Counted from the first letter of the stretch, positions 1 to 16,212 are shown. The stretch is 54,001 nt of DNA from an uncultured Pseudomonadales bacterium (GCA_964447075.1 CAYUQY010000005.1:1-54001); one strand, 5' to 3'. Notes: a model not told the origin generated them from the letters alone. Translations and numbers: made by a program.

Positions 1-176
1 ATTTAGGACTATTGAAATAATTTTTGCTGTCACCACATGGAGTTTTTTGGTAGCCCCGTCAAGCCACTGCGCGACAATAGACGGGTCTATCAGAACTTTT
101 CGATACTTGCGGACTTGTCGAGACCGTTTTGTAACGGTATCCGGTATCATCGTATCGCGGACTTGTCCGACTCTTG

Positions 177-261
177 CGGAAGTGGTGGGATTCGAACCCA
201 CGGGGCCCTTGCGAGCTCACGCTTTCCAGGCGTGTGCAATAAACCACTATGCGACACTTCC
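177..261 (-). tRNA. tRNA-Ser(GGA)
   Basis: Reverse complement folds: acceptor GGAAGTG/CACTTCC, discriminator G, anticodon arm CACGC-CT GGA AA-GCGTG, long variable arm, T-loop TTCGAAT; CCA not encoded. Confidence 0.96.
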
Positions 262-321
262 TTAATTAACAGAGATGAAATTGTATCACCCCAATCACTT
301 AATCTTGATCTGGATTTCTGC

Positions 322-477
322 GGAGATCCATCGCCCTCTAGGGATGATCTTCCCTGGACTGATAGAGTGAGTGGGTCGTGCGACTTACTAGGACTGAAAC
401 TGGTAGACCATTTGATAGAAGCAGGTGATAAACACTACTCACTCAAAGAACAAGGAGATCTCAGACGGTCGTCGTAA
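322..477 (+). pseudogene. RadC/JAB C-terminal remnant
   Basis: Translates GDPSPSRDDLPWTDRVSGSCDLLGLKLVDHLIEAGDKHYSLKEQG, colinear with the C-terminus of the intact RadC at 2259-2957 (GDPSPSSDDLVWTKRVVESCALLGLELVDHIVVARDQHYSFKEHG); the N-terminal three quarters are missing. Confidence 0.85.
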
Positions 478-478
478 T

Positions 479-637
479 CTATCGAGACATAACGACCTTT
501 ATAAAAACACGAACGGTGGGTGACCAGACACCGCGTGAGTCCTGAACAGAGAAGTCGGCAGTGAAGTTACCACGCTTGGGAAGGAAGTTGTAACACTTGA
601 TTGGTAGAAAGTACCCACACCACCCGAAAACTCCAAC
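479..637 (-). pseudogene. Frameshifted PKD-domain remnant
   Basis: Minus strand with two frameshifts gives WSF/SGGVGTFYQSSVTTSF/KRGNFTADFSVQDSRGVWSPTVRVFIKVVMSR*, matching the C-terminal PKD domain of the 3469-4659 protein (WKFSDGVTSTQSSLSKSFNRRGNFTADFTVTDSRGVTSAPVRVFIKVQRAR*). Confidence 0.85.
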
Positions 638-639
638 TT

Positions 640-1818
640 CTAATTAATTGTAATATTGACTGATTGAGTGACGGTGTTGCCTGATGGGTCAGATGCTGTT
701 GCTGAGACTGAATGAGTCCCACGATTGTTAATTTTAAATCTGCAGCTATAACTTGATGTAGTATCAGTGCACTTTAGTGAGCCATCTACATAGAACTTGA
801 CAGAGCTGACAGCTATATTATCGGAAGCCGTAGCTTTAGCTGTTATTTGTGTGCGCGCGGGATAAGTTCCACCATTTACCGGGTAGGTAAGACTTAAGGT
901 GGGCTGGGTTTGATCAACTGGACTTGGACTAGGACTCGGTGATGGTGAAGGTGAAGGACTCGGAAGTGGCGATGGACTTGGTGATGGCGATGGACTCGGT
1001 GATGGCGATGGACTCGGTGATGGCAACACAGAGGCTATCGGAGATGGACTTGGAGATGGACTTGGGGATGAGCTTGATGGAGCGACAAGACTAAGAGTAA
1101 CTGCATCTACTGTCTTCAAGATGTCTGCAGGAGGCTGGCTTCTAGAACTCGTTACCTTGGAAGACTGAGAGAATGTGTAAGTCAAAGTACCAGCAGTGTG
1201 AGGGTAGAAGCGAATATTCATGAACTGGGCAGCATCTGTGGCCTGAAATCTTTCACCTGGTGCAGCAGCAGATACAATAACTTTAATCCTGACACCATGT
1301 TCCATCGGCTCGATGACTCGCGATAGAATCTTAAGCTGCGTATTATTGACATTGATAGGAGACAGCTCAATCCTTCTGTTGTCTGATGAAGCTGTGGTTT
1401 GATCAAATAATAGTGCCGGAAAATTAGCTGTGTTCACACCCAGTATTGTAAACTCAAGCTGTGCCCCATCCACGAGCACCTGGTTAGTGTCAATAGCGAG
1501 AGCTAAGTTATATGGCTGATCGAGAGCAACACTGGCACCATTCTGAGAACTAGAGATAACGACTGTCCCGCCACCTGTAGAAGCTTGGTTTCTAGGATCT
1601 AAGTTCTGACCTGGCAGACCATAGGCTACATAGAGACCACTCACGCCGACAAACAAGACTGCAGCCATGCCTAACCACTGGAGGAGACCAACCTTTTTAA
1701 ACATTTGCCCGTGTCTAGTAAATTTGTCAGTAGAAACAGCCATGCTGGAAGCATTTTCGTTCAACTCTTCGCGTGGTTGTGTAGCCTCTGGTGTGTCTTG
1801 CATAGAGTTGTGTTTCAA
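640..1818 (-). CDS. Membrane-anchored cohesin-like protein with Ser/Pro linker and C-terminal bacterial Ig-like domain
   Basis: 392-aa ORF: one N-terminal TM helix, beta-rich cohesin-like segment (VDGAQLEF...IRFYPHTAG...SSKVT...DILKTV), (SP)n linker, Ig-like end (ASDNIAVSSVKFYVDG...ATASDPSGN). Paralog of 3469-4659. Confidence 0.8.
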   Translation of the reverse strand: MKHNSMQDTPEATQPREELNENASSMAVSTDKFTRHGQMFKKVGLLQWLGMAAVLFVGVSGLYVAYGLPGQNLDPRNQASTGGGTVVISSSQNGASVALDQPYNLALAIDTNQVLVDGAQLEFTILGVNTANFPALLFDQTTASSDNRRIELSPINVNNTQLKILSRVIEPMEHGVRIKVIVSAAAPGERFQATDAAQFMNIRFYPHTAGTLTYTFSQSSKVTSSRSQPPADILKTVDAVTLSLVAPSSSSPSPSPSPSPIASVLPSPSPSPSPSPSPSPSPSPLPSPSPSPSPSPSPSPVDQTQPTLSLTYPVNGGTYPARTQITAKATASDNIAVSSVKFYVDGSLKCTDTTSSYSCRFKINNRGTHSVSATASDPSGNTVTQSVNITIN

Positions 1819-1865
1819 AATGTAAATTTAGTAAAAAAAACAGCGATCAACCCTAATATGTCTGA

Positions 1866-1993
1866 CTAAAGCAAGTACTAAGATATGAATAGTCTAAAAT
1901 ATCAACATAGCCATATCCACATCATTGTCCTCATCTATATCAGCCACTAAGCAAGTTGAAGGAGAAGGTAAGGCAGAGGAGTGTTTCTCTCAT
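1866..1993 (-). pseudogene. Internally deleted remnant of the DUF4832-dockerin gene
   Basis: Three pieces in different frames (MRETLLC; PSPSTCLVADIDEDNDVD; GYVDILDYSYLST) match the start, first dockerin loop and second dockerin loop of the 4663-6414 protein. Confidence 0.8.
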
Positions 1994-2051
1994 GTGAGGT
2001 GTTAAGAGTAGCACCTTTTTGAACAGTGATTCAAGCGGTAGTTTACATTTG

Positions 2052-2135
2052 CGGAAGCTGTGGGAATCGCACCCACGTACCTCTTGCGAGCTCACGCTTT
2101 CTAGGCGTGTACAGTAAACACTATGCGACACTTCC
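2052..2135 (-). pseudogene. Chimeric degenerate tRNA-Ser (anticodon reads AGA)
   Basis: The 5' half matches tRNA-Ser(GGA) at 177-261; the 3' half and downstream flank match tRNA-Ser(CGA) at 6473-6559. Lesions: T-loop TGCGATT, single G in the D-loop, G7xA acceptor mismatch. Confidence 0.85.
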
Positions 2136-2258
2136 TTTATATCTGTGCCTGGAACTGCACCATTGGTTCTAGCATTAGTAAGCAGGAGCGTAACTACCCT
2201 GGGCAATCACAAATTTGCAATCTATTTTAAATAATTCTTTGTTAAGATCAGAAAATAA

Positions 2259-2957
2259 ATGCAGTCAATCCTAGTAAATAGATCTACCCTACCAACTACA
2301 CTAACTACAGCCTTGCTAAGTACACAGCTCATGCCACGAGAGGTGATCCAACATCGCGGAGTAGAGTACTTGAGCACCCAGCAGTTGCTAGTACTTATTC
2401 TTGGTTCTGGCTCAAAGAAGGCTCCTGTCAAAAAACTAGCTCAACTTGTCCATCAGAAGCTCTCCCTGCGACAGAGTCAGCTATCTCTCACAGACTTACT
2501 CACTATAAGGGGGATGGGTCTAGCCAAGTCCTGTCAGATCTTGGCGGCCTTGGAGCTGGTCGAACGGCTTCGACCTAGAGACTTGCCTTTGATCTCCAAC
2601 AAAAATGAAGCTCTTGCTCAACTTGAAATGCTTAAGCACTGCCCACAAGAAAGGCTTATCTGCCTCTATCTCAACGCTCGTCATCAGCTTGTTCACCATG
2701 AAGTCGTAGCTGTGGGTAGTCTCAACCAACTAGTTCTTCAACCCTGTGACATTTTCAGACCTATCAAGTCACTACCCATTATGTATCTCATCCTCGCCCA
2801 CTCTCACCCCAGTGGCGACCCATCACCTTCAAGCGATGATCTAGTCTGGACTAAGAGAGTAGTTGAGTCTTGTGCTTTATTAGGTCTTGAGCTGGTTGAT
2901 CACATTGTTGTGGCCAGAGACCAACACTACTCCTTCAAAGAGCATGGTGAGATTTGA
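2259..2957 (+). CDS. radC: RadC/JAB-domain protein
   Basis: HhH-like IRGMGLAKSCQILAALEL, ERLICLYLNARHQL, JAB motif HSHPSGDPSPSSDD, LVDHIVV. Confidence 0.93.
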   Translation: MQSILVNRSTLPTTLTTALLSTQLMPREVIQHRGVEYLSTQQLLVLILGSGSKKAPVKKLAQLVHQKLSLRQSQLSLTDLLTIRGMGLAKSCQILAALELVERLRPRDLPLISNKNEALAQLEMLKHCPQERLICLYLNARHQLVHHEVVAVGSLNQLVLQPCDIFRPIKSLPIMYLILAHSHPSGDPSPSSDDLVWTKRVVESCALLGLELVDHIVVARDQHYSFKEHGEI

Positions 2958-3048
2958 AGTAAATGCTTATCGAAGTAAGGATTTAGTCAAGGTGAGATGT
3001 AAGCTTAGTTAATATTCTAGCCTGTAAGGTCCTACTCAAATTCATGTG

Positions 3049-3354
3049 TTAATCTAGATGAGATGTGTCCTCAACTATCTGAGACACAAGGGTCTTGAGC
3101 ACTTTCAGCTCTTCTTCCAGCTGAGATATTTTATCAACCACCAAGGCCACTTTTTCACCTGTGAATAAAGCAACGGAAACATTCAGTGTCTGTGCTAGAT
3201 CTCCAAGCTGTGCTCTGCTGGGTTGTATCTTGCCTGTCTCGAAGGCAGAGATGAGCTGTGGAGAGACTCCGATCTTACTAGCCAACTCTGACTGAGTTAT
3301 AGCCTGAGCTAAGCGGGTTTTTTTCAGGAGCTTATGAAGTGAAGGCATGCGCAA
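3049..3354 (-). CDS. XRE-family HTH transcriptional regulator
   Basis: ITQSELASKIGVSPQLISAFETGKIQPS is a typical HTH_3 pattern; short coiled-coil tail. The start may be the second Met. Confidence 0.88.
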   Translation of the reverse strand: MRMPSLHKLLKKTRLAQAITQSELASKIGVSPQLISAFETGKIQPSRAQLGDLAQTLNVSVALFTGEKVALVVDKISQLEEELKVLKTLVSQIVEDTSHLD

Positions 3355-3468
3355 GGCTGATTGGTAACAAAGCTGGTATTGTAATCACAAATCTATATTA
3401 CGAAGTAAGCTAGATTGCAAATCAGACATTCATTTTGCGACTGCTTTATAAAAAAGACTCGAAGTAAA

Positions 3469-4659
3469 TTATCTAGCTCTCTGGACTTTGATGAACACTC
3501 TGACAGGAGCAGAAGTAACACCTCTAGAGTCAGTCACAGTAAAGTCAGCTGTAAAGTTACCTCTTCTATTGAATGACTTACTCAGGCTGGACTGGGTGCT
3601 CGTAACCCCATCTGAAAACTTCCAGCGGTAACTAAAGCCAGTTGTGCCTCCCTGAGCATCGCGTCCCATACCTGTAAGAGTAGCCGCTTGATTATCATTG
3701 AGTGTAATATGGGTTGTTAGAGGCGAAGTAACGATAGCTATAGGTAGATTGAGCGGTGAGGGACTTGGAGATGGTGAAGGCATAGGGGTCGGAGATGGCG
3801 AAGAGCTTGGTGAGGAGCTAGGCGAAGCGGATGGAGAGGCTGATGGTGAAGGCATAGGAGTCGGAGATGGCGATGGTGAAGAGCTTGGCGTAGGCGAAAC
3901 AAGTGTTAGCTGCATCTGCCCAACTGTCTTCAAGATATCAAGAGGTTGGGGGTTGTCTAGAAATCTCTTCTGCGTGACTTTGGAAGACGTTGGATTAAAA
4001 CTGAACATAAGCTTGCCAGGAGTGTGGGCTGTAAAGCGAATTTTTAAAAACTGTAAGTTGCTGTTACTGGAAAAGGCTCTCAGTGATAGATCTGGAACTA
4101 TTGCAGCCCGGACATTCACGCCATTGGTGATGTTGCTTATGGCTGCAGTTTGAGCTGGAAGAATAGATAACTGTCCACCGTTAACGCTCAGAGGAATAAG
4201 AGAGACGCTGGCTTGGTCAAATAGAAGAGCTGGATTGTTGCTCGTATTCACTCCTTGAATAGTAAAATCCAACTGTACGCCATCTACTGGGATTGTGTAG
4301 GTATTGATAGCTAAAGTAAATTCATATGGCTGATTGATGGTAGTAGTAGCCAAGTGTTGAGGACTAGTGATAATTACTGTACCTGTACCACTTGAGGCTT
4401 GATTGCGACCATCTAGATTCTGAGAGGGTAAGCCATATGTAACGTACAGTGAAGAGGCACCTATTACCAAAACTAAAATGAGCATCAGCCACTGGCTAGA
4501 ATTACCTGAGTTCTTTAGACCATGTTTATGAGAAGAACTCGAGCTTGACGGGGAGCAGTAAAGTGATTGATCAGCTGTGACATCAGCATCACTACTTACC
4601 TCATATGAAGAAGATGATATGTCGTCTGCTCGCTCGTCTGATAATTTATGATTAGTCAT
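3469..4659 (-). CDS. Membrane-anchored cohesin-like protein with Ser/Pro linker and C-terminal PKD domain
   Basis: 396-aa ORF: TM helix, cohesin-like beta domain (VDGVQLDF...LKIRFTAHTPG...SSKVT...DILKTV), SP linker, PKD motif (YRWKFSDG...GNFTADFTVTDSRG). Confidence 0.8.
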   Translation of the reverse strand: MTNHKLSDERADDISSSSYEVSSDADVTADQSLYCSPSSSSSSHKHGLKNSGNSSQWLMLILVLVIGASSLYVTYGLPSQNLDGRNQASSGTGTVIITSPQHLATTTINQPYEFTLAINTYTIPVDGVQLDFTIQGVNTSNNPALLFDQASVSLIPLSVNGGQLSILPAQTAAISNITNGVNVRAAIVPDLSLRAFSSNSNLQFLKIRFTAHTPGKLMFSFNPTSSKVTQKRFLDNPQPLDILKTVGQMQLTLVSPTPSSSPSPSPTPMPSPSASPSASPSSSPSSSPSPTPMPSPSPSPSPLNLPIAIVTSPLTTHITLNDNQAATLTGMGRDAQGGTTGFSYRWKFSDGVTSTQSSLSKSFNRRGNFTADFTVTDSRGVTSAPVRVFIKVQRAR

Positions 4660-4662
4660 TAT

Positions 4663-6414
4663 TTATAGTAAACAACTCTGTTCATAATGAGTACTTAAGA
4701 AAGAATAGTCAAGTATGTCTACGTATCCATCTCTCACTGCTGGAGCTAAATCTGCTCTGGGTGGGGTGGGTGTAGTAAAAAGTGTAGCAACTAATATGTT
4801 GTAATCAAGAACATCTACCACATTGTCTTGATTGATATCAGCCACTGAGCAACTAGACGGAGGGGCGGAAGGTGAGGCGCTAGGAGAAGCACTGGGACTG
4901 GCAGATGGAGAAGCTGAGGGACTAGCTGAAGGTGAAGCGCTCGGAGTAGGTGTAGGAGAACCTGCGGCAGTAATCTCGAAGCTCTCTAAAATTTTGTTGT
5001 AACCTTTGACACCATCCCAAGCAAAGTTGTCTGCACTACCACTGCTCACATTGGCCAAGCGAACAGCATACTCAGGAATATTAGCCAATGCGGATGATCG
5101 GTCTGGCAGCCATAGAAAAACTCTGTACTGACCAGGGTCCAAAGCAGGAACACTAAAACTTAAGTTAACTGCCTTATTACCATCCTCTGGAAGCCAGGTG
5201 CGAGGGTCAGCTCCAGAAGTTTCAATTGGGTCTGAGTAAACTCCTGTTAATTTATTCTGCAAAACAACCTTTACTGGACGCTGATAGTACATAGGAGCGT
5301 AGCCAGAATTCTTGATAGTTAGCGGAAGAGTAAGAGCTGAGTTGGCAGCTGCGGTGGTAGGTAGATTAGAAGTGACTAAAGAGAAGCGGTAGCCCAGCTT
5401 ATTAACAAGAGTCGGCCAACATCCGCCATCCTTAAGCTTCATTATTGCCCTGGGCTGTCCAGAACTATCAAGTCCGTCAGGCCACACTCCATGCAGAGCA
5501 GTCCAGTGCATCTTGGACATCTTGTCATAGGCATTGTCACAAGTCACTTGATCTGAGTTTTGACAGAGCTCTCCAGTCATAGGCACATACTTGGTCTCAT
5601 TAGCTACGTAATCTTCTGTCTGTGTGTCAGTTTTTCCAACAATGTAGTATCCCTCCCATGACCTTGTAGCCATAAGACAGTCATTGTGAAAACTAGACTT
5701 AGAAAAATGAGACCCATTGAATGCCGTAGCTTGCGTGAGTGTTTGATCAGGAAAAAATTTGTTTCTTAAGGACGGGTACCTAAGTGCTACAAAGATAGGT
5801 TGAGTTGGATCTTGAAAAACATCCTCCATATAAGTATGCACTCCAAATAAGTCTATAAGATCTTGACCAGTAAGATCATTTCCATTGTCGCCACCATCTC
5901 CATTTGGATCTAGAGTTAAAAAATTATCTGAGTGATGCCACTCTCCATGCTCACCAACATATCCAGTGTATACTTGATAAATAATATCCTGGTTATTTAA
6001 TAGAATCTGTCTTAGAACATCAATATGCCTCTTAATCCTTATTGCAGATGCATCAGCGCTACTGGATCCGTACTTAACAATTACGATTGCCTTTAAGTTA
6101 GCGGCTCGAACTGCTGCCAGGTGTGTTGAAAGAGAATCAGTATATGTCGAAGTAATTGAATCAGAGCTGTTGGGAATGACAATGCCCACTCGCACCATAG
6201 TGGATGGAGTAGATGCGTGCGTCCTAACACCTGAGTAACTAGGGCTATCGTTAATTAGATTTTTGACGTGAAAAGTCCCTCTCTCAGGATTCAAGATGTT
6301 AGTAGTGAGGTCTTCCACATATGTTGTGTTTGCAGTCTGCGACCTAGCAGCTGGCGGCATGGCCAAACCAACCACAACGAATAAAGAAAGCAAGCCGAGG
6401 AGTGTTTTTTTCAT
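4663..6414 (-). CDS. Secreted DUF4874/DUF4832-type putative glycoside hydrolase with C-terminal dockerin
   Basis: Signal peptide from MKKTLL (ATG at 6414); motifs LNPERG, GEHGEWH, FHNDC, GELC, LGYRF; SPSA linker; two Ca-loop repeats ADINQDNVVDVLDY and DGYVDILDY. Confidence 0.8.
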   Translation of the reverse strand: MKKTLLGLLSLFVVVGLAMPPAARSQTANTTYVEDLTTNILNPERGTFHVKNLINDSPSYSGVRTHASTPSTMVRVGIVIPNSSDSITSTYTDSLSTHLAAVRAANLKAIVIVKYGSSSADASAIRIKRHIDVLRQILLNNQDIIYQVYTGYVGEHGEWHHSDNFLTLDPNGDGGDNGNDLTGQDLIDLFGVHTYMEDVFQDPTQPIFVALRYPSLRNKFFPDQTLTQATAFNGSHFSKSSFHNDCLMATRSWEGYYIVGKTDTQTEDYVANETKYVPMTGELCQNSDQVTCDNAYDKMSKMHWTALHGVWPDGLDSSGQPRAIMKLKDGGCWPTLVNKLGYRFSLVTSNLPTTAAANSALTLPLTIKNSGYAPMYYQRPVKVVLQNKLTGVYSDPIETSGADPRTWLPEDGNKAVNLSFSVPALDPGQYRVFLWLPDRSSALANIPEYAVRLANVSSGSADNFAWDGVKGYNKILESFEITAAGSPTPTPSASPSASPSASPSASPSASPSASPSAPPSSCSVADINQDNVVDVLDYNILVATLFTTPTPPRADLAPAVRDGYVDILDYSFLSTHYEQSCLL

Positions 6415-6472
6415 GTGAGGTATTAATAGTAGCACCTTTTTTGCGCACCACACAATCGGTAGTTTACATTTG

Positions 6473-6559
6473 CGGAAGCGGTGGGAATCGAACCCACGTA
6501 CCCCTTGCGAGGTCCAAGGTTTTCGAGACCTGGCCGATAGGCCGCTCCGGCACGCTTCC
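6473..6559 (-). tRNA. tRNA-Ser(CGA)
   Basis: Acceptor GGAAGCG/CGCTTCC, anticodon loop CT CGA AA in stem AGGT/ACCT, long variable arm, T-arm GTGGG-TTCGATT-CCCAC. Confidence 0.94.
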
Positions 6560-6613
6560 TTGTGTTTGAGAGTTAATTATCTCACCAATTATCACATTTG
6601 GCCTCTCTACATC

Positions 6614-6642
6614 AAATAGCCGGCTGGGTAGCCGGCTATTTT
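6614..6642. terminator. Intrinsic terminator, possibly bidirectional
   Basis: Perfect hairpin AAATAGCCGGCT-GGGT-AGCCGGCTATTT, just downstream of the stop of the 6669 ORF. Confidence 0.7.
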
Positions 6643-6668
6643 AAATTACTTTTTAAAGTAGACTAGGA

Positions 6669-8276
6669 TTAGTAGTCTAAGGTACTACCCATATCTGGAG
6701 CAGTAGTATCGTCCTCAAAAGGAGCCTGAATACTCTGCACTCCCTTCTTAGCAGAACCAGTCTTCAGCTCATTACTGTACATAGAGGAGCTCTTCATACT
6801 CTCCATGTAGCCCCTCATGAGCTCTACTACATCCACAATGTTCTCTGTAGGCTCAACAAGTGGTGTGAACTTGCCGCGACTTTTCTCTTCGGAACTCATT
6901 TTAAAGGTCATACTCTCGAGCTTGAATTGACTCATGATCTGCTCACTAGTGGCACCACTCTTGCTAGCAGCGTAATCTATGAATTGCCTTAGGCTATCCT
7001 CAGTCACAGCCATGGTCATAGAACTACTGAGAACCGTGCCGTCTACTGGACTGACAGCTACTTTTACATCTTGCAGCTTCACGACTGCTATCAAGCGTCC
7101 AAACACCTCTTTCGTCTCAACCATTGACTCTGGGTTAGACTCTAGACTACTCATCATCTCGTTGAAGACCTCTTCAGAGTAGATGTCCTCGCACTTCACT
7201 GATGAGCTAGCGTACATACCTGTCTCATTACAGTAAGTTATGAGATCAGTACGATGATCTTTGAAAAGCTTTGGCAGTCCACCAGCGAAAGTCATCAATC
7301 TCTGGGACATCTCTTGAGTATTGATGTCCAGATCCATCATGACTGCGCTCTGGCCATTGACTGCACCACGAGTGTGATTGGTCACGGTCATGTACTCACT
7401 CATCTTGTCCAAGCCTGAAGTACCAGCCAATTTGTAGACATCGGGCTTGATGCTGTTGATGAATTTATTGAGAGCTGCTTCCATTGTCTCTAATGAAGCT
7501 ACTTGAGCACCTGGCTCACCACCAGAAAGCTCGTTGATCATTTTCATGTACTCATCAAGGTTGAGCTTGAGATACTTATCTAGGTAAGCCTCTGGGTCAA
7601 AAAGACTGTCCGCTCCACTCTCTATACCTGCTTGCTTCTGTGCAGCTAAGACTGGTCTTAATGTCTCCATAACCTGAGGAGATAGTGAGATCTTGAAGTA
7701 AGCTAGCTTCTTGCTAACCTGAAGCATATCTAAGTTAAAACCATCTTTGCCTAGGTCTACCTGCATAATACCGCTCTTAAATGACCCGCCAAATGTCAGA
7801 TTTTGCTTCACCTGCTCCATCTTGCCATCAACAGCGTAAGTAGAAGCAGAGTCCAAGTGGACAGTCACTGGCATCATCACTGGGCCTGACTGCCCTTCAT
7901 TAGAAGCCACTTCAGCCTTAAAATCAAATGCCGCTTGTGCTGAGTACTCTCGTCCACCTATTTGTTTTACGTAGTTAAGGTCGAACTCTCTGCCCAAACC
8001 CGTAGCAAGAAGTTCCAAAGGAGTAGGAGCAAGAGAGTTGAGAACTGGTACTTGCTCGATAGGTAGCCCAGCGAAAAACTTGGAGATAGGATTACCTTGA
8101 CCGATGTTTTTAGCTGCTAGAACTGTAGTGGCACCAAGGACGACTATGACACCAATTACCAAACCAAGTCCGGCAAACTTACCAGATGAACCTCTGGGAG
8201 AAGAGATTTGAGTCTGGGTGGGCATGGCGGCCATAGGGCTGGGCCTTGCGGCTCGATTGGTGGGAAGTGAGTTCAT
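6669..8276 (-). CDS. Membrane-anchored hypothetical protein
   Basis: Long ORF with one N-terminal TM helix; ATG at 8276 is preceded by GAGGG; no family recognised. Confidence 0.8.
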   Translation of the reverse strand: MNSLPTNRAARPSPMAAMPTQTQISSPRGSSGKFAGLGLVIGVIVVLGATTVLAAKNIGQGNPISKFFAGLPIEQVPVLNSLAPTPLELLATGLGREFDLNYVKQIGGREYSAQAAFDFKAEVASNEGQSGPVMMPVTVHLDSASTYAVDGKMEQVKQNLTFGGSFKSGIMQVDLGKDGFNLDMLQVSKKLAYFKISLSPQVMETLRPVLAAQKQAGIESGADSLFDPEAYLDKYLKLNLDEYMKMINELSGGEPGAQVASLETMEAALNKFINSIKPDVYKLAGTSGLDKMSEYMTVTNHTRGAVNGQSAVMMDLDINTQEMSQRLMTFAGGLPKLFKDHRTDLITYCNETGMYASSSVKCEDIYSEEVFNEMMSSLESNPESMVETKEVFGRLIAVVKLQDVKVAVSPVDGTVLSSSMTMAVTEDSLRQFIDYAASKSGATSEQIMSQFKLESMTFKMSSEEKSRGKFTPLVEPTENIVDVVELMRGYMESMKSSSMYSNELKTGSAKKGVQSIQAPFEDDTTAPDMGSTLDY

Positions 8277-8423
8277 ATTTCCTTCTTTAGTACTAGAATT
8301 AACTGATTGGGTGGCAGGCGTCATGGACAGATCCTTTCAAAAAACTATGTTCTTGCGCAACATTATATACTACAAAGAAATTGTGCGCCTATTTTAGAAA
8401 CAATTCAATCCTCAAACTCAACT

Positions 8424-8499
8424 TTCTCGGCTCAACCTTCAACTCTTGATACTTATTCTCGGCTCAACCTTCAACTCTTGACACTTATTCTCGGCTCAA
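8424..8499 (+). repeat. 32-bp tandem repeat, about 2.4 copies
   Basis: TTCTCGGCTCAACCTTCAACTCTTGAYACTTA starts at 8424 and 8456, with a partial copy at 8488; no spacers. Confidence 0.9.
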
Positions 8500-8525
8500 A
8501 TCTATCTTTCATCTCAAACCTACTG

Positions 8526-8597
8526 TGCACCCATCAGGAATCGAACCTGAATCCAAGGTTCCGCAAACCTTTATTCTATCCGTTGAACTATGAGTGC
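8526..8597 (-). tRNA. tRNA-Arg(GCG)
   Basis: Acceptor GCACTCA/TGGGTGC, anticodon arm AAGGT-TT GCG GA-ACCTT, T-loop TTCGATT. Confidence 0.94.
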
Positions 8598-8634
8598 ATT
8601 TTGCGGCTAATGAGATTTTAACATGAGAAGGAGG

Positions 8635-9198
8635 TTATTTGTCCAAATCGATCGGTATTTTAGTCGACAACCAGCTGGCAGCTTTTTCAAAAGATGAGGC
8701 CGGCGGTCTCTCCTGAAGTAGAACTTCAGCTAGAATTAGATCTAGCTGTTCCTGTGTTTTTTCCCCAAGAAGTAGAGTCACCCTATGAGGAAATCTACCC
8801 AGCTCAAACTGGGCCACCACTGCCCCACTACGTAGCTCGTACCAATATCTGCCCAGCTCTCCCCAGAGATAGAGCTGATCATCACTTCTTATCCCATAGG
8901 ACGTCAGCTGATGGTGTACAACATTGGGAGGAATGGCTGAGAACACATAAGCGACAAAACCTATCGAGATTACTACCGCTACGGACAGAAACTGCTGCAA
9001 GACAATCAAAATGAGCGAAATTAGAAAGACTATCAAAAAAACAGTAGTGTAGTACTGCCTGCCTCGACTTTTAAAAGACCTTGAGTGTGCCTCCCACTCA
9101 AGTAAGAGCTGTTCTGGTTCCGGCTTACTGAAGTTCGCAGCAAAGCCTGGATAGACGCTGGATGGCTGGGCTTGGTGGAGATTGTCAGACATGTGCAA
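8635..9198 (-). CDS. Conserved two-TM hypothetical protein (CPR-type, DUF5673-like)
   Basis: WEAHSRSFKSRGRQYY followed by a TM hairpin and a PH-like beta tail; family name recalled, not verified. The start may be the ATG at 9192. Confidence 0.7.
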   Translation of the reverse strand: MHMSDNLHQAQPSSVYPGFAANFSKPEPEQLLLEWEAHSRSFKSRGRQYYTTVFLIVFLISLILIVLQQFLSVAVVISIGFVAYVFSAIPPNVVHHQLTSYGIRSDDQLYLWGELGRYWYELRSGAVVAQFELGRFPHRVTLLLGEKTQEQLDLILAEVLLQERPPASSFEKAASWLSTKIPIDLDK

Positions 9199-9272
9199 GC
9201 TTCAGTGTACTAGGAAACTAAGAAGAAATAAACTTGCTTTAAAGGCTCTAAGGCTAGAATGGAAGAGGGGAA

Positions 9273-10268
9273 CTAAGCAGAGACGACGTGGGTAGAAGCG
9301 TCAGTCTTGGATCTTTTCTTACGTAGTCTGCGGACTACCATGATGGATATGAGCATGATCAGGATAAAAATAACGAGATGGTACGGGAAGACTATGACAT
9401 CGACAGCAGCCTGAAGAGAGTGATTCTTTTTCTCACCATAGACTAGACCAGAGCGTACCTTGTACCAACCCAGTCGAAAGTTCTGCCACTCGTAGACGAC
9501 TTGACTCCAGAAGTTCTGGAGCATGTTGCCTGTCAAAACTGGGCCAGGACCTTCCTCCCAGGTGCTCTCGAATTTACGAATAGTCTTAGGAAAGACTACG
9601 AGTTTACTTGAGTTAATAGAAATAGACTTGACCGCAGTATCGAAGACAAATGGCTCGACGTATCCGACTGGAGTGCTGTGAACTGTACCTACATTTTTGA
9701 CACGTGTAATGAAGTTGATCGGTAAGTAAGGATAGAACCAACCATGGTCAGCGGTGTCAAAAGACTCGATAACTAATTCTTCTACTATCTCGCCTCGCAC
9801 TGTCAGTAAGATTTGGCCAACTACTCTTGGTGTTAAACCCGCCCCAGTGGTTGTAATTTGATCAACTTGTTTTTCACCAGTCACCACAATCACTGCGTAG
9901 TGACCACCTGGAGGCGCATCTATAGGAACTGAGATGTGATAGGGAATCTTGGTGATTTGAGCAGGGAGAATTTCTTGAGCAAGATCGGCGTCCAGAGTAA
10001 TCCAGTGACCTAGGGTGTTTGTCCCTTCTTCAGGAAGGTAAAACTCACGATCATTCTCCTCTCCCACTTTACGGAATTCTTCTAGACTCAAAATGATTTT
10101 TTCTGATTTGCTAACTTCACCTATTATTAGAAGCTCTCCACTAATAACCTCTCCTGGAGAGGCCACGTACTCTATGGCAGGAGGAGAGAGCTGGACAGCA
10201 GAAACAAACCCTGGAAAAAAAAGAGTCACTAGGCAGAGACAGAATATTCCAAATATACCTCTGCGCAT
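9273..10268 (-). CDS. DUF916/DUF3324-like (WxL-interacting-protein-like) surface protein
   Basis: Signal peptide, LSPP start, VPIDAPPGGHYAVI, VKNVGTVHSTPVG, C-terminal TM plus basic tail. Confidence 0.7.
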   Translation of the reverse strand: MRRGIFGIFCLCLVTLFFPGFVSAVQLSPPAIEYVASPGEVISGELLIIGEVSKSEKIILSLEEFRKVGEENDREFYLPEEGTNTLGHWITLDADLAQEILPAQITKIPYHISVPIDAPPGGHYAVIVVTGEKQVDQITTTGAGLTPRVVGQILLTVRGEIVEELVIESFDTADHGWFYPYLPINFITRVKNVGTVHSTPVGYVEPFVFDTAVKSISINSSKLVVFPKTIRKFESTWEEGPGPVLTGNMLQNFWSQVVYEWQNFRLGWYKVRSGLVYGEKKNHSLQAAVDVIVFPYHLVIFILIMLISIMVVRRLRKKRSKTDASTHVVSA

Positions 10269-10274
10269 AAATAT

Positions 10275-11309
10275 CTAGTTTGAGAACATAGTATATGTAA
10301 TAATTTGAGCATAACTGGTGGCAGCGGTAGCTGTACTAATAGCTGCACTGTGTCTAACCTCAATTCTCTCACCAGTGCCAGCGGCAACTGGAGCTGTAGA
10401 GGTAGAAACTGAAGTAGCTGAGGTTGGAATAATATTAAAATTAGAATTATTGTATGGAGCAGTAGTAGTGGATGTTCCTATTTGGGTAGTTTTAAAACCA
10501 TACTCTTCTGTGCCTGCATCAATTGTCTGATTATTACCTGCAATAGCATTAATTGTATCTGAGCCGTTGAGTAAATTTCCGTCACTCATAAATTTTAGAG
10601 TATACCCAGCAGCAGAGTTTGTACCAACTTTAAGATAGTAATCGCAAAATGGAGTTGTACTGGTAAGAATAACTCCAATTGCACACACATTTGTGCCTGT
10701 GGTCAAAGCTGTATCAGAAAAGATTCCAAACTCTATTACTGGATAAACTTCAGCACTAACAGAAACTTGGTTGTCAGTAATTCCGCCACCAGCTCCATCA
10801 GCATCTAAATATCCTAGAGTGGCACCCTGATCAAGTCTTCCTGCTGCAACATCAGTCACAATTCCAACACTATAGTTGCCTGCTGAAGATGGGTTGGTGA
10901 TACCGGTTAGTTGAATTGAGATAGTAGTGCCAGCAGTTACACTTGCATCATTGGTGTCCACGGTTACCACTTGGCCTACAGTTGCGTCCAAAGTAGTACC
11001 AGCAAGTCCTGAGACTGTACCGAGCGCAACCGGCCCAGCTGCTAAATTAACACCTGATGCAAAAATTAATTTTACTTTAGTAATGTTGCCCGTTGTAGCT
11101 GTATTAAACTGCACCGTCCAACTCACCGCCGCAGTAGACTGGACATTGTTGCTCAAAGCCACACTCATGACAGTCAAGTTAAGCGCATAAGCCTGCTTTA
11201 CCACCGACAAGAGTGGCGCCAAGGTAAACATGAAAATGAGCGAGATGATGCCGATCTTCTGTGAAACTTTTCGAGGTGAAGTACGTCTGAAGAGTGAGAA
11301 TAACTGCAT
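10275..11309 (-). CDS. Secreted Thr/Ala/Gly-rich beta protein with WxL-like C-terminus
   Basis: Signal/TM segment, Ig-like repeats, ends ATSYAQIITYTMFSN; 6 bp from the DUF916-like gene. The start (11309 or 11327) is uncertain. Confidence 0.7.
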   Translation of the reverse strand: MQLFSLFRRTSPRKVSQKIGIISLIFMFTLAPLLSVVKQAYALNLTVMSVALSNNVQSTAAVSWTVQFNTATTGNITKVKLIFASGVNLAAGPVALGTVSGLAGTTLDATVGQVVTVDTNDASVTAGTTISIQLTGITNPSSAGNYSVGIVTDVAAGRLDQGATLGYLDADGAGGGITDNQVSVSAEVYPVIEFGIFSDTALTTGTNVCAIGVILTSTTPFCDYYLKVGTNSAAGYTLKFMSDGNLLNGSDTINAIAGNNQTIDAGTEEYGFKTTQIGTSTTTAPYNNSNFNIIPTSATSVSTSTAPVAAGTGERIEVRHSAAISTATAATSYAQIITYTMFSN

Positions 11310-11534
11310 ATGATAGTTAAAATACAAAATAAGATGTCTACAAAGCTCTAAAGCATTGCGACAGGAATTAGCTTACGACATTCAATTATGTCCTGTCAAT
11401 AGATCAATCCGAGAGTGATAAGTGGATCCTCGGTTCGCTCATTCAATACATCTGCCTCGTCACATATATGGGTGGATATAGGTAATTAATGATAGAATTC
11501 TCTCTTGTCGGACTGCAACAGTCCTACCCAAGCT

Positions 11535-11621
11535 GGAGAGTTGGCCGAGCGGTTTATGGCGCTAGTCTTGAAAACTAGTGGGCGCAAGCCCTCGTGGGTT
11601 CGAATCCCTCACTCTCCGCCA
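11535..11621 (+). tRNA. tRNA-Ser(TGA)
   Basis: Acceptor GGAGAGT/ACTCTCC, anticodon arm CTAGT-CT TGA AA-ACTAG, variable arm GGGC-GCAA-GCCC, encoded CCA. Confidence 0.96.
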
Positions 11622-11679
11622 GCTGATTTTTACAGTAAGTCAAACTGCAATTCTCACTGTCCTGCACTATAATTCACTC

Positions 11680-12282
11680 ATGTCCACTCAAACTCAAGTC
11701 CCGCAGCAGGAGCCTTCACAACCAAAAAAGCAGATTTTCAGAGCCCTTGAGGCAAAGTCTCTGCGCAATCGATCATCTCTCACGCGCATTGCAGATTACT
11801 TAACAGGTCTTTGTAGCACTCCAACCTTTTTGTTTCTAAACATTCTTCTGTTTGTCACCTGGATTGTTTTAAATCTACAGATTATTCCTAACTTCGCTGC
11901 GTTTGATCCGTACCCATTTGGGTTACTTACCATGGCTGTTTCTCTAGAAGCCATAGTTCTCTCCATTTTTGTGTTGGTTTCCCAAAACAGAGGAGCTCAA
12001 ACTGCAACTCTCAGAGATGAGTTGAATCTACGGATTAATCTTATCGCTGAACGAGAAATAACGAAAACACTACAACTTCTCGTGAAAATTGGGAAAAATA
12101 TGAACATACATGAAAATGATGTTGAGTTAGAAAATATGATCAAGGATATCGACGCAACTGATTTAGAACAAGTTATATTGCAGCAAATTGAGCGGGCTGG
12201 ACAGCCTCGACATAAATTAGTTAAAGGAGAGTTTTCATCAATCATCTCTTCTTTAATTAAACCACTTGTGAAACTCCGATGA
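11680..12282 (+). CDS. DUF1003-family membrane protein
   Basis: FDPYPFGLLTMAVSLEAIVLSIFVLVSQNR motif; true ATG at 11680 (the listed ORF start lies inside the tRNA). Confidence 0.88.
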   Translation: MSTQTQVPQQEPSQPKKQIFRALEAKSLRNRSSLTRIADYLTGLCSTPTFLFLNILLFVTWIVLNLQIIPNFAAFDPYPFGLLTMAVSLEAIVLSIFVLVSQNRGAQTATLRDELNLRINLIAEREITKTLQLLVKIGKNMNIHENDVELENMIKDIDATDLEQVILQQIERAGQPRHKLVKGEFSSIISSLIKPLVKLR

Positions 12283-12305
12283 GCTCATGAGCCAATCAGA
12301 ACTAT

Positions 12306-13205
12306 ATGAAGTTACTTGTAAACCAGCTCCTTGTCTTGACCATACTGCTGATAGTAAACGCCTCTCCAGCTAAAGCAGTAGAGATTGGCGGTCCACTCTC
12401 AGCACAAGATCGAGCTAGAATCCAAGAAGTGGCCAAACAAAACGCCATCAAGTACGGCGTCAATGGTGCCCCAGGCACAGCTACTACGACTAAGGCCACT
12501 AAAGCTGCCAATCTCCCCAAGTCAGCTCCAACCAAAGCTACTTCTTCTCAAAAAATTTGCAGCATAAGTGAATTTGCACCAAAGTCTGATGGTGGAAAAT
12601 GGGCGCAAAGACTCGGCTACTCCCTAGATCCTTTAACTTCATTCATGATAGATGTAGTCCACCTTCTGACTACTTGTGTGAATCCCGCGACTACACTACT
12701 AAATATTTCTGGCAAGCTAGTGATTCCACAAGATGCCACACAAAAAACAGCACTAAATATCTCTAGCAAGCTAGTGATTCCACAAGATGCCACTAAAGAA
12801 ACTCCTGTTGCCTCATTAAAAAAAATAGAAACGGCTGAGTCCGAGTGGAACAAAGGCTTCGACATCTGGATTAGTACTCAAGATTATCAGAAAGCGGCCG
12901 TCTACTACAAAAAATCGCTGGAGTTAGACCCAAACTACCCACCCGCACTCTCATCCTATGGCTATTTGTTAGGCGCCTTTTACGATCGCCCCGAAGAAGG
13001 GATCACTATGATTAAAAAAGCCATGGAGCTAGACCCAAATTGGGCCTATGCACCCTTTAATTTAGGCCTGGTCTACTCTATCAATGGCGATGATAAGAAT
13101 GGACTTTATTGGCTACAATATACCGTAGATCATTTTCCTAACCACCCAGACATCAGTCACTTCAGAGAGTACTTGAATGGTGTAAAAAATGGACCACCAC
13201 AGTAG
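12306..13205 (+). CDS. Secreted TPR-repeat protein
   Basis: Signal peptide; TPRs KAAVYYKKSLELDPNYPPA and MIKKAMELDPNWAYAPFNLG. Confidence 0.8.
   Translation: MKLLVNQLLVLTILLIVNASPAKAVEIGGPLSAQDRARIQEVAKQNAIKYGVNGAPGTATTTKATKAANLPKSAPTKATSSQKICSISEFAPKSDGGKWAQRLGYSLDPLTSFMIDVVHLLTTCVNPATTLLNISGKLVIPQDATQKTALNISSKLVIPQDATKETPVASLKKIETAESEWNKGFDIWISTQDYQKAAVYYKKSLELDPNYPPALSSYGYLLGAFYDRPEEGITMIKKAMELDPNWAYAPFNLGLVYSINGDDKNGLYWLQYTVDHFPNHPDISHFREYLNGVKNGPPQ
12698..12793 (+). repeat. In-frame 54-bp tandem duplication within the TPR gene
   Basis: LNISGKLVIPQDAT / LNISSKLVIPQDAT; copies start at 12698 and 12752. Confidence 0.9.
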
Positions 13206-13213
13206 ACTTAAAC

Positions 13214-13244
13214 ATGCCCAAACTGCCCCACACCCTTAGTTTTC
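13214..13244 (+). repeat. Direct repeat of the 5' end of the 14186 gene
   Basis: ATGCCCAAACTGCCCCACACCCTTAG(T/C)TTTC at 13214-13244 and 14186-14216 (30/31 identical). Confidence 0.9.
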
Positions 13245-13311
13245 GCAACTCAATCACTTCCTACTAAGTACTGGTATCACAACTCCCTCACACAGTAGTA
13301 AAATATACTTA

Positions 13312-13563
13312 ATGCTCACAGATACCTCTGAAATACAACTTGCTCCTGAATTACTAAAGTATTTTTGGGGAGATGATTTGCAACAGTTATCTTGGAAAAG
13401 AAACTCTACCTACATCACTCAAACTCTTCTCGAAAAAGGCGACACAGATGCGGTGCACTGGCTCTTTTCAAAAGTCGAGCGAAAAAAAGTGCTAAGCTTG
13501 CTACCAGATCTCCGCTTAAGTCCTAAATCAGCTAATTTTTGGCTACTCTACCTTGCAGAATAA
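13312..13563 (+). CDS. Small DUF6922-like protein (putative antitoxin)
   Basis: YFWG...YITQTLLEKGD..AVHWL...LSPKSANFW pattern; directly upstream of an AbiEii-type gene. Confidence 0.75.
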   Translation: MLTDTSEIQLAPELLKYFWGDDLQQLSWKRNSTYITQTLLEKGDTDAVHWLFSKVERKKVLSLLPDLRLSPKSANFWLLYLAE

Positions 13564-13568
13564 ATTTT

Positions 13569-14186
13569 ATGTATCTTGATACGCTCCCTACTCAAACCGC
13601 CAAACTTTTAAAAAGGTTGCCACTTTGCGAATCTATTAAAAACTTTTACTTATCTGGAGGCACAGCTCTAGCTTTGCAGTTGGGTCATCGCGAATCTGAG
13701 GACCTTGATTTTTTCTGTGAAAATAACTTTGATCCTCTCAAAATTCAAATAGAGCTTGAGGCTTTAAGTAAACCAAAAGAAGTGGAAGTTACCAACGGCA
13801 ATTTAAACTGTTTTTTGGACCAGGTAAAACTCCAATTTTTGCATTATCCATACAGACTTTTAGAGCCAATTGTTGAGTTGGATAACATAAAACTATCGTC
13901 AGTTCTTGACATAGCTTGCACAAAAATTATCACAATTTCTATGCGAGGAAGTAAAAAAGACTTCATTGATCTTTCTTTTTTGCTTGAACTGTACGACCTA
14001 CCCTTTTTATTTTCCAAGATAAAAGAAAAATATCATGGAATTGAGTATAATGAACCTCATCTCCTCAAGTCATTAACTTACTTCAGGGACGCTGAGCTAC
14101 AGCCATTGCCAAGAATGCACAAAGAAGTAAGTTGGGAAAAGATAAAAACAACAGTAGTTGAAAAAGTGCGGGAGTTTAAGTTTTGA
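13569..14186 (+). CDS. AbiEii/AbiGii-family nucleotidyltransferase toxin
   Basis: FYLSGGTALALQLGHRESEDLDFF and RGSKKDFIDL motifs; ATG at 13569. Confidence 0.9.
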   Translation: MYLDTLPTQTAKLLKRLPLCESIKNFYLSGGTALALQLGHRESEDLDFFCENNFDPLKIQIELEALSKPKEVEVTNGNLNCFLDQVKLQFLHYPYRLLEPIVELDNIKLSSVLDIACTKIITISMRGSKKDFIDLSFLLELYDLPFLFSKIKEKYHGIEYNEPHLLKSLTYFRDAELQPLPRMHKEVSWEKIKTTVVEKVREFKF

Positions 14187-14944
14187 TGCCCAAACTGCCC
14201 CACACCCTTAGCTTTCTTGCTCTCATCTCCACAGGAGTTTTAAGCTTTTTCGTCTGGCAGTCTCATGCTCAGAATAGCTTCCTCACCAATAAATTAAAGC
14301 TCGTCAGCACCCAGATAGACCAAATTAATATGAGGTTGGATGATATAAATCTCAACTCCCAAACTCCTACTTATGACCTAAATCTAACTCCTACTACTCC
14401 CTATCCATCTGCACCTCCTACAACACTTCTGGATAAAACAAACACTATCACTGCTACGCAGAGCTCTGCCCAAACTGCTGCTCTACAGTCTGAAGTTAGT
14501 TCTCTAAAAAACCAGCTTACTTCACTAGAAAAAAAAGTCGACGCACTTCCTCGCACACAAACTAAAGTCGTAACCAGTGCCAGTGCGACTCGCGAGTATC
14601 TAATCTTCCTCGGCTCAGGATCGACGCTGAACCGTGACTGGACAGTCATCCCTGGAGCTGGAGTTACTTTAGATTTATCAAGTTATAAAAACATCAAATC
14701 TATCAACTTCGAAGCCGGCTTATCCATCGTGAGTGGAGAGTCTTATGCCAGACTATATGATCAGACCACCCGAACGCCCTATGCCATCAGCGAGGTTATG
14801 AATAACACCAGTGGCGGCACCTGGATAACATCTCCAAGCTTTGCCTTACCCTCTGGAAGCCACTACTACACCGTCCAGCTCAAGTCCAGCAATGGTGAAC
14901 CTGCACAATTGATTGGTGCACGGCTCAAAATTAGGGCTGATTAA
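14186..14944 (+). CDS. Membrane-anchored coiled-coil hypothetical protein
   Basis: N-terminal TM, coiled coil, beta-sandwich C-terminus; ATG overlaps the TGA of the toxin gene. Confidence 0.75.
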   Translation: MPKLPHTLSFLALISTGVLSFFVWQSHAQNSFLTNKLKLVSTQIDQINMRLDDINLNSQTPTYDLNLTPTTPYPSAPPTTLLDKTNTITATQSSAQTAALQSEVSSLKNQLTSLEKKVDALPRTQTKVVTSASATREYLIFLGSGSTLNRDWTVIPGAGVTLDLSSYKNIKSINFEAGLSIVSGESYARLYDQTTRTPYAISEVMNNTSGGTWITSPSFALPSGSHYYTVQLKSSNGEPAQLIGARLKIRAD

Positions 14945-15114: not shown

Positions 15115-15120
15115 CAAGTA

Positions 15121-16158: not shown

Positions 16159-16212
16159 ATAGGATGAATTTTCAGAAAGTAAAATTACAAGATCTCATTT
16201 TATTGAGTCAAA

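Follow-up and report, generated by a model that had tools for sequence, protein, structure and literature searches.

A chimeric serine tRNA gene at the joint of two collinear gene cassettes in an uncultured Pseudomonadales bacterium

The window examined here, a stretch of 54,001 nucleotides (nt) from an uncultured Pseudomonadales bacterium (GCA_964447075.1, CAYUQY010000005.1:1-54001), carries near its start a tandem array in which three serine tRNA genes on the minus strand alternate with two direct-orientation copies of a cassette of putative surface-protein genes. The middle tRNA gene, which stands at the joint of the two copies, is a chimera of the outer two, of GGA type in its 5' part and of CGA type in its 3' part. 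This anatomy points to an exchange between two different isoacceptor tRNA genes as the probable origin of the array.

The locus and its genes

ARAGORN places eight tRNA genes in the window, six of them serine tRNA genes that all lie inside its first 20.7 kb. The three that frame the array, GGA, the middle gene (AGA) and CGA, are found by both ARAGORN and Rfam. Read along the minus strand, the order is tRNA-Ser(CGA), an enzyme, an anchor protein with a PKD domain, a helix-turn-helix (HTH) regulator, radC on the opposite strand, the middle tRNA, a second anchor ending in a Big_7 domain, a radC fragment, and tRNA-Ser(GGA). We call the cassette next to the CGA gene unit A and the one next to the GGA gene unit B. 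Their features are, in the same order:

6472-6559, minus strand: tRNA-Ser(CGA), head of the array and parent of the 3' part of the chimera, with a perfect acceptor stem (ARAGORN; Rfam, 43.4 bits)
4663-6453, minus strand: unit A enzyme, an open reading frame (ORF) of 596 amino acids (aa) with a signal peptide, DUF4874 and DUF4832, a Ser/Pro linker and a dockerin-like C-terminus (Pfam)
3469-4659, minus strand: unit A anchor, 396 aa, with an N-terminal transmembrane (TM) helix, a predicted cohesin-fold domain, a Ser/Pro linker and PKD (Pfam PKD_4, 7e-11)
3049-3354, minus strand: XRE-type HTH regulator of unit A (Pfam HTH_3, 1.7e-13)
2259-2957, plus strand: radC of unit A, with a UPF0758 N-terminal domain and a RadC-like JAB domain (Pfam RadC, 4.6e-30)
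2051-2135, minus strand: chimeric middle tRNA, the join point, anticodon AGA (ARAGORN; Rfam, 38.2 bits)
1963-2050, minus strand: unit B remnant of the enzyme leader and first codons, its first 15 nt being those found after the CGA tRNA
1874-1964, minus strand: unit B dockerin remnant (GYGYVDILDYSYLS...), with stop codons, the catalytic domains deleted
640-1818, minus strand: unit B anchor paralog, an intact ORF of 392 aa with a TM helix, a predicted cohesin-fold domain, a Ser/Pro linker and a Big_7 Ig domain replacing PKD (Pfam Big_7, 5e-16)
469-647, minus strand: unit B remnant of the PKD C-terminus behind a new stop codon, with the in-frame stretch KRGNFTADFSVQDSRGVWSPTVRVFIKV (blastn, tblastn)
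322-458, plus strand: unit B radC remnant, the last ~45 codons in frame and the N-terminal two thirds deleted (Pfam RadC, 3e-8 on ORF 37-477)
176-261, minus strand: tRNA-Ser(GGA), tail of the array and parent of the 5' part of the chimera, with a perfect acceptor stem (ARAGORN; Rfam, 59.0 bits)

The first-pass annotation of this DNA had already recognized three minus-strand tRNA-Ser genes with a hybrid in the middle, a description that both tRNA searches and the breakpoint analysis below bear out, and its RadC, HTH, and PKD labels agree with Pfam.

That the arrangement should be an assembly artefact or a chance resemblance is scarcely credible. The assembly is metagenome-derived, and two independent Logan assemblies, 100% identical to the window over 174-14659 and 184-8554, both stop at 174-184, exactly at the 3' end of tRNA-Ser(GGA), which may reflect strain-level variation just downstream. 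All three assemblies are nevertheless identical across the array, and units that are 59-90% identical are too diverged for a collapsed repeat and cannot be a mis-joined one; chance is excluded by the breakpoint and flank statistics. The array is no assembly artefact.

The chimeric middle tRNA

In an alignment of serine tRNA genes, the local GGA and CGA genes differ at 25 columns, two of which match neither parent in the middle gene. At the remaining scorable columns the middle gene is GGA type at the first 18 and CGA type at the last 5, such that a single breakpoint fits 23 of 23 sites, a fit equalled by 4 of 20000 site-label shuffles. The gene is composed of a 5' part of 54 nt of GGA type and a 3' part of 32 nt of CGA type, with the breakpoint between columns 48 and 59, inside the 10-nt parent-shared block CTCGCAAGGG that makes up the variable-arm stem and its GNRA loop. 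The earlier label "5' GGA" describes the type of this 5' part correctly but not the anticodon, which is now AGA by a G34 to A34 change at one of the two columns unlike either parent. The same annotation had staked its hybrid on kinship with the two neighbouring genes, and the chimera is indeed closer to these neighbours than to their GGA and CGA counterparts in other genomes: it carries T19 on the GGA side and the T in GGTAC, T59, and G67 on the CGA side, local bases that differ in the genes of contig L003, from the relative GCA_964479905.1, and of the genomes L005-L009.

The chimera has since departed from its parental halves at 7 of 85 positions (~8%), and three of the seven changes strike conserved tRNA features, namely, a G7:A66 mismatch, a U55 to G change in the T-loop, and the loss of one D-loop G. 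With a D-loop reading UGUU and a T-loop reading UGCGAUU, it departs from the strict 7-bp acceptor stem, G18G19, and T54-Psi55-C56; its Rfam score is the lowest of the eight window tRNAs, yet lies above the Rfam threshold of 29 bits, and the cloverleaf still folds. A crude sigma-70 consensus scan picked out a promoter-like site at 6615-6588 for tRNA-Ser(CGA) and none upstream of the chimera. Given these changes to conserved features and the lack of a promoter-like site upstream, the chimera may now be decaying. All 5' and 3' tRNA patterns in the window match full-length genes, with no partial tRNA copy among them.

The AGA chimera is one of two A34 serine tRNA genes in the window. The other, tRNA-Ser(ACT) at 20594-20679 on the plus strand, is perfectly formed (Rfam, 53.9 bits; fold z = -4.5) and looks mosaic, its acceptor stem being TGA-like on both strands and its D and anticodon arms GCT-like. 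According to the account in PMC8266599, A34 in bacteria is normally limited to tRNA-Arg, and in some to tRNA-Leu too.

Two collinear units

The first-pass annotation had proposed comparing 177-2260 with 2052-6559. Carried out as a sensitive blastn search of 1-2300 against 2041-6700, this comparison resolves two direct-orientation units that share six ordered blocks (174-2137 versus 2049-6586), with the following correspondences:

radC C-terminus: unit B 322-458, unit A 2814-2950, 69% identical
PKD domain end: unit B 469-647, unit A 3459-3635, 59%
Anchor (cohesin-fold) gene: unit B 932-1635, unit A 3761-4449, 60% at the nucleotide level
Dockerin: unit B 1874-1964, unit A 4690-4862, 76-78%
Enzyme leader, first codons and tRNA: unit B 1963-2137, unit A 6385-6561, 77%

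The homology runs in order over ~1.9 kb of unit B and is at its closest in the enzyme leader, where 1973-2020 and 6394-6441 are 90% identical. At the protein level, the two anchors are 47% identical (BLASTP, E = 1e-51), and the PKD match is upheld by tblastn (479-598, 65% over 40 aa, E = 3e-10). The flank downstream of the chimera matches that of the CGA gene with a local score of 50.5 (shuffle mean, 9.1), the first 15 nt being identical; beyond these 15 nt, the spacer after the chimera is essentially random relative to its CGA-side counterpart. The repeat unit runs from tRNA to tRNA, with the radC remnant directly before the GGA gene just as radC precedes the chimera. Both the structure of the array and its polarity, as far as sequence can tell, are well supported as those expected from an exchange between the head and tail tRNA genes of a CGA-cassette-GGA locus.

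The earlier view that the second copy lost the enzyme and radC while keeping and remodelling the surface protein is borne out, with a fragment of radC left. Translation of 1830-2050 gives the start of the enzyme signal peptide fused to the second dockerin repeat, with stop codons; blastn detects no copy of the HTH regulator in 1-2050; and the deletion in unit B took the 5' two thirds of radC together with its promoter region. The cohesin paralog and the PKD remnant of the earlier description of unit B are both present, and the paralog itself ends in Big_7, which has replaced PKD.

The direction of the chimera also bears on another route to such an array, in which an ordinary-breakpoint tandem duplication, for example upstream of the CGA gene, was followed by gene conversion of the 5' 54 nt of the middle gene from the GGA gene. 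To this we assign little probability. It requires two events where one suffices, and it makes no prediction as to which half is converted, while the observed polarity is the one that a single exchange predicts; nor does it account for a repeat unit that runs from tRNA to tRNA, each unit ending in radC before a tRNA. What speaks for conversion is a marginal similarity between the sequences that precede the chimera and the CGA gene (score 13.5 versus 9.0, reached in 4 of 300 shuffles), which is one of 6 comparisons in AT-rich sequence, and the mosaic look of the tRNA-Ser(ACT) gene at 20594, a hint of exchange among serine tRNA genes.

A putative surface-display pair

The unit A enzyme, putatively glycoside-hydrolase-like, has Pfam matches to DUF4832 (3e-43) and DUF4874 (4e-17); its start is likely the ATG near 6414, and the gene is called as 583 aa in the Logan contigs. 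Its last 65 residues match profile positions 2-52 of 57 of Dockerin_1 (PF00404) at 21.3 bits (E = 3e-4), just below the 22.9-bit cut-off, and a homolog that is 33% identical, P0018, carries PF00404. Searching PDB sequences with the enzyme gave nothing beyond low-complexity matches to circumsporozoite proteins.

Pfam finds no cohesin match in either anchor protein, and the cohesin label derives its support from structure prediction. An AlphaFold2 model of the anchor, built from nine sequences, has a predicted local distance difference test score (pLDDT) of ~75-85 over residues 95-255, and all 35 of its 35 Foldseek PDB matches at E <= 0.001 are cohesin modules (best E = 1.5e-6, template-modelling score up to 0.73). 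The model thereby assigns the anchor domain to the cohesin beta-sandwich fold.

In two distant relatives, a dockerin-bearing gene lies directly before the homologous anchor gene. These pairs, in L010 (960-4393) and on a contig of JGI 3300071358 (genes at 4487-7331), each consist of a dockerin gene and a TM/cohesin-fold anchor upstream of secE-nusG-rplK-rplA. The dockerin gene and its anchor look like a conserved module in this group of uncultivated bacteria. We infer that the cassette is a small surface-display pair, in which a membrane-anchored cohesin-fold protein would hold a dockerin-tagged enzyme through cohesin-dockerin binding. Cellulosome-type display offers the obvious parallel, since here, too, the gene for a dockerin-tailed enzyme stands directly upstream of that for a membrane-anchored cohesin-fold protein and the pair recurs in distant relatives. 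The present pair differs in having one cohesin per anchor, an N-terminal TM helix rather than a surface-layer homology or sortase attachment, no Pfam cohesin match, and DUF4874/DUF4832 as the putative catalytic part of the enzyme.

Age and kinship of the units

The proportions of synonymous (pS) and nonsynonymous (pN) differences between units A and B are 0.71 and 0.36 for the anchor domain, 0.79 and 0.19 for the radC fragment, and 0.91 and 0.24 for the PKD fragment. Since synonymous differences are at saturation, the divergence of the units is evidently old, comparable in magnitude to the separation of this genome from L003 (orthologs 47-69% identical). Purifying selection acted on the now-broken pieces of unit B during most of the time since the units diverged. 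Recent conversion of one anchor gene by the other is ruled out by a sliding nucleotide identity of 0.38-0.67 that never exceeds 0.67. In a HMMER search of 1.84 billion representative proteins, the best match to the TM and cohesin region of paralog B is paralog A (49%, E = 1e-41), followed by a protein at 35%, and no outside donor for paralog B is visible in that collection; a word-based search with paralog A gave nothing above 33% apart from paralog A itself. Exact look-up of paralog B as its longest ORF gave no match because the gene is called from a later start.

Against these values, either the chimera was long constrained, or the cassettes had diverged long before they were joined. The second possibility would follow if unit B were a diverged cassette allele imported from a related organism through the same tRNA joint, one route being a circle excised by recombination between CGA and GGA genes, carrying a 5' GGA / 3' CGA tRNA, and integrated at the serine tRNA genes. 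Import would explain the discrepancy between a chimera only ~8% diverged from its parents and cassettes that are saturated at pS 0.71-0.91, with radC and PKD remnants whose pN of 0.19-0.24 reflects selection for most of that time; moreover, a deletion of the kind seen in L003 (see below) would release exactly such a circle. We nonetheless consider import unlikely. No lineage is known that could have been the donor, and after paralog A the closest homolog of paralog B is 35% identical; no transfer machinery lies in or beside the cassette; and the data also fit an old in-genome duplication with both copies long functional. The synonymous divergence that the first-pass annotation had suggested measuring is therefore informative as to age, being old and saturated, and does not tell duplication within the genome from import.

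A probably reciprocal arrangement in a relative

The 551-aa protein that flanks the array has one homolog, P0028 (47% identity), on contig L003 (GCA_964479905.1); an alignment scan with the same protein gave no relative in genome or metagenome contigs. L003, the only syntenic relative found, carries tRNA-Ser(GCT), tRNA-Ser(TGA), four homologous ORFs, tRNA-Arg(GCG), a 537-aa gene, and tRNA-Ser(CGA), and has no cassette after the CGA tRNA, the whole interval being absent. Within 4 nt of its CGA tRNA stands ATCGAAAAGTTCTGATAGACCCGTCTATT..., which in the window lies downstream of the GGA gene, and the two flanks match with a score of 41.5 versus 9.0. The L003 tRNA is of CGA type through the variable arm, where it has a compensatory A-U to G-C change; its acceptor 3' strand reads CACTTCC as in the GGA gene, and A67 produces a C6:A67 mismatch. 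The marker that ties this CGA tRNA to the GGA flank is the following feature:

20-104, minus strand: conserved non-coding sequence on the downstream side of the GGA tRNA, made up of GAAAAGTTCTGATAGACC... and a hairpin

As this motif also follows the 3' end of tRNA-Ser(GGA) in the unrelated metagenome contig L008, its association with GGA is taken as the older state. Most simply, the arrangement looks like a deletion in the L003 lineage, in which recombination between its CGA and GGA genes at the T-arm/acceptor region removed the intervening DNA; this would be the reciprocal of the window event.

The conserved element itself spans ~125 nt and immediately follows the 3' end of a tRNA-Ser gene in three contexts that are otherwise unrelated (window 20-104, minus strand; L003 7740-7871; L008 3270-3401). 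In it, GAAAAGTTCTGATAGACC is followed by a hairpin and by ...TTCAAC.GCC. It belongs to no Rfam family, and a consensus fold of the three sequences yields the hairpin with almost no covariation. In L003, the motif is followed by amidohydrolase / carbamoyl-phosphate-synthase-like genes. Between the GGA tRNA and the motif, the window has a 72-nt insert (105-175, minus strand) that is absent in L003, is bounded by ...TCCGCAAG repeats (...TTCCGCAAG and ...GTCCGCAAG), and contains two copies of GACAAGTCCGC; it has the look of a scar left when something integrated long ago at the 3' end of the tRNA.

A degenerate 46-nt pattern covering the 5' halves of both tRNAs retrieved only GGA genes, from the non-syntenic genomes L005-L009. 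With no CGA gene within ~6 kb upstream, these loci are uninformative on ancestral linkage. In four of them, tRNA-Ser(GGA) is followed within ~120-250 nt by at least one partial copy of its own 3' end (L005 ~1912-2172, L006 ~5893-6152, L008 3125-3270, L009 ~1124-1324), and in L005 the terminator is duplicated too. Judged by their layout, these copies look like att-like scar arrays, and tRNA-Ser(GGA) would accordingly also be an integration hot spot.

Such scars are what would lend weight to an integrase-mediated origin, in which two related islands were inserted successively by a since-lost tRNA-targeting integrase and the chimera is an attachment-site hybrid. RadC and XRE regulators are common on mobile elements, and those of unit A both have PHROG matches; the 72-nt insert with its ...TCCGCAAG repeats lies after the GGA gene, and the interval is absent in L003. 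As in tRNA-integrated islands and prophages with tyrosine integrases, there is a variable block by the 3' end of a tRNA-Ser that a relative lacks, with RadC and an XRE regulator. We reject this origin as very improbable. Pfam and PHROGs searches of all ORFs of at least 90 aa found no integrase in the first 21 kb of the window; the three tRNAs are full length with no partial 3' repeat, the junction tRNA being assembled from two genes; and the homology of the units extends in order over their whole length, far beyond an att core. The acceptor stems, moreover, are perfect in the outer tRNAs of the "occupied" site and mismatched in the "empty-site" L003 tRNA, where integration would lead one to expect the reverse. 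Nor has the cassette viral, phage, or plasmid relatives: a pattern scan of viral contigs, a radC scan, and blastn against phages and plasmids gave only tRNA or low-complexity matches. The first-pass annotation had cast tRNA genes as repeats that diversify surface genes rather than as integrase targets. No integrase is present here, in keeping with that view; as a general statement, it rests on one locus, and tRNA-Ser(GGA) has att-like 3' scars elsewhere.

Proposed history and mechanism

We consider it likely that a single exchange between the CGA and GGA tRNA genes gave rise to the tandem array. On the minus strand, the ancestral locus would have read tRNA-Ser(CGA), a cassette of the dockerin-tagged DUF4874/DUF4832 enzyme, the cohesin-fold/PKD anchor, the XRE regulator, and radC, and then tRNA-Ser(GGA). 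Two copies of this locus would have been joined through the GGA gene of the first and the CGA gene of the second, with the switch falling within CTCGCAAGGG, and the product of this exchange would be a direct tandem array of CGA, cassette, chimera (5' GGA / 3' CGA), cassette, and GGA. The distal unit would later have lost the catalytic part of the enzyme, the regulator, and most of radC, its anchor gene staying intact and exchanging the PKD tail for Big_7. The likely outcome is a single enzyme with a dockerin and two surface anchors that differ in their cohesin-fold domains. In the lineage of GCA_964479905.1, recombination between these two tRNA genes would have gone the other way, deleting the interval and leaving a 5' CGA / 3' GGA gene. 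A single-exchange model thereby explains the chimera, its polarity, the tRNA-to-tRNA unit, and the L003 arrangement by one kind of event.

As to mechanism, the parents are identical at 63 of 88 positions, and their longest common blocks are merely 11 nt (CGTGGGTTCGA) and 10 nt (CTCGCAAGGG). RecA-dependent exchange in E. coli usually requires a minimum of ~20-30 bp of homology. With common blocks of only 10-11 nt, short-homology (microhomology) recombination or template switching is the more probable route over a classical RecA crossover. The common block would reach 19 nt if the CGA T-loop once read TTCGAAT, as in L003. The unequal crossover between isoacceptor tRNAs put forward in the first pass therefore retains its anatomy and the polarity of its junction, while its homologous character is doubtful at this level of identity and import stands as an alternative.

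Several observations weigh against the single-exchange history. The upstream flanks of the chimera (2136-2265) and the GGA gene (262-391) have no detectable similarity (score 8.0, shuffle mean 8.6); the homology predicted there is unconfirmed because the deletion in unit B removed that region. The longest identical parent blocks fall short of the classical RecA homology requirement, and synonymous sites between the units are saturated, so that their divergence could predate the joining. The single-copy CGA-cassette-GGA locus that the first-pass annotation anticipated in relatives was not found in scans of genome and metagenome contigs. With respect to the reciprocal event, the L003 tRNA has one clearly diagnostic site (A67), and a single-breakpoint test is weak (1006 of 20000); its difference in the T-loop may have arisen in the lineage of the window alone; its 3' end is identical to that of the GCT gene as well; and the L003 reading, including the status of the GGA gene, comes from one contig of GCA_964479905.1.

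A bolder generalization would be that serine isoacceptor tRNA genes form a recombinase-free cassette system, in which exchange between CGA and GGA genes repeatedly excises, deletes (as in GCA_964479905.1), re-inserts, and duplicates (as in the window) a surface block, and in which the chimera was long kept as a working new A34 serine tRNA instead of an immediate pseudogene. We regard this as decidedly doubtful.

Relation to known rearrangements

Chimeras at the join point of exchanges between dispersed repeats are textbook features of bacterial duplications. Anderson & Roth and Edlund & Normark reportedly described tandem duplications formed through dispersed repeats (rrn, insertion sequences, and repetitive extragenic palindromic elements, in Salmonella and E. 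coli) and through short repeats at ampC and lac. The present locus resembles these in its direct tandem array, in a chimeric join made of the outer-end sequences, and in a probable reciprocal deletion, and repeats of ~10-12 bp can suffice. It differs in that the repeats are two isoacceptor tRNA genes, 72% identical, and in that the array, far from being a transient amplification, is ancient and diverged, with a junction gene that is still tRNA-like.

A second parallel lies in the plastid world. Hiratsuka et al. are said to have proposed in 1989 that a cereal chloroplast inversion arose by recombination between distinct tRNA genes. This is the accepted cause, with hybrid tRNA pseudogenes left behind, and the title phrase of that work is widely cited, in 118 papers of the literature searched (PMC8486006 and PMC12371153 among them). 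Common to both cases are non-identical tRNA genes as substrates and chimeric tRNA sequence at the endpoints; the cereal events are organelle inversions, whereas the present case is a bacterial chromosomal duplication, probably accompanied by a deletion in a relative, and its tRNAs accept the same amino acid. The literature searched, with incomplete coverage, held no described case of a bacterial duplication joined between two isoacceptor tRNA genes. To our knowledge, distinct tRNA genes have until now been documented as rearrangement endpoints mainly in plastid inversions.

The locus is a clean, well-preserved case of a rearrangement whose kind is already known; it introduces no new mechanism and leaves the current understanding of recombination mechanisms unchanged. 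Its value lies in the preservation of the join inside a tRNA gene, from which the parents, the polarity, and the 10-nt exchange site can be read directly. It indicates that a duplication in a bacterial chromosome, and probably a deletion too, can have its endpoints in two non-identical tRNA genes of one amino acid. It further provides an instance of a surface-display pair diversifying after duplication, where the anchor was kept and given a new C-terminal domain as the rest decayed. If the chimera was functional, it would exemplify the birth of a new tRNA gene by recombination.

Other features of the window

The six serine tRNA genes (176-20679; anticodons GGA, AGA, CGA, TGA, GCT, and ACT) are interspersed with accessory genes, and the order GCT-TGA-Arg(GCG)-CGA is kept in L003. 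Directly after tRNA-Ser(TGA), the window has a block that is extra relative to L003 (11622-14183; DUF1003, a TPR protein, a DUF6922-like small gene, and an AbiEii toxin-family gene), which is another tRNA-adjacent insertion or deletion. A second accessory block flanked by serine tRNAs lies between tRNA-Ser(GCT) and tRNA-Ser(ACT) (15116-20593) and encodes a Bro-N / phrog_8036 protein, a 545-aa protein without matches, a cupredoxin, a Y-family DNA polymerase, and a DUF6504-like protein; contig L003 stops short of this region, at its GCT gene. In the spacer between tRNA-Arg(GCG) and the downstream 551-aa gene, a 32-nt unit occurs twice in tandem, 97% identical (8424-8487). Farther along are a 744-aa ORF with glycerol-3-phosphate dehydrogenase and FGGY (glycerol-kinase-like) domains (38509-40743, minus strand) and a 445-aa serpin (45225-46562, plus strand).

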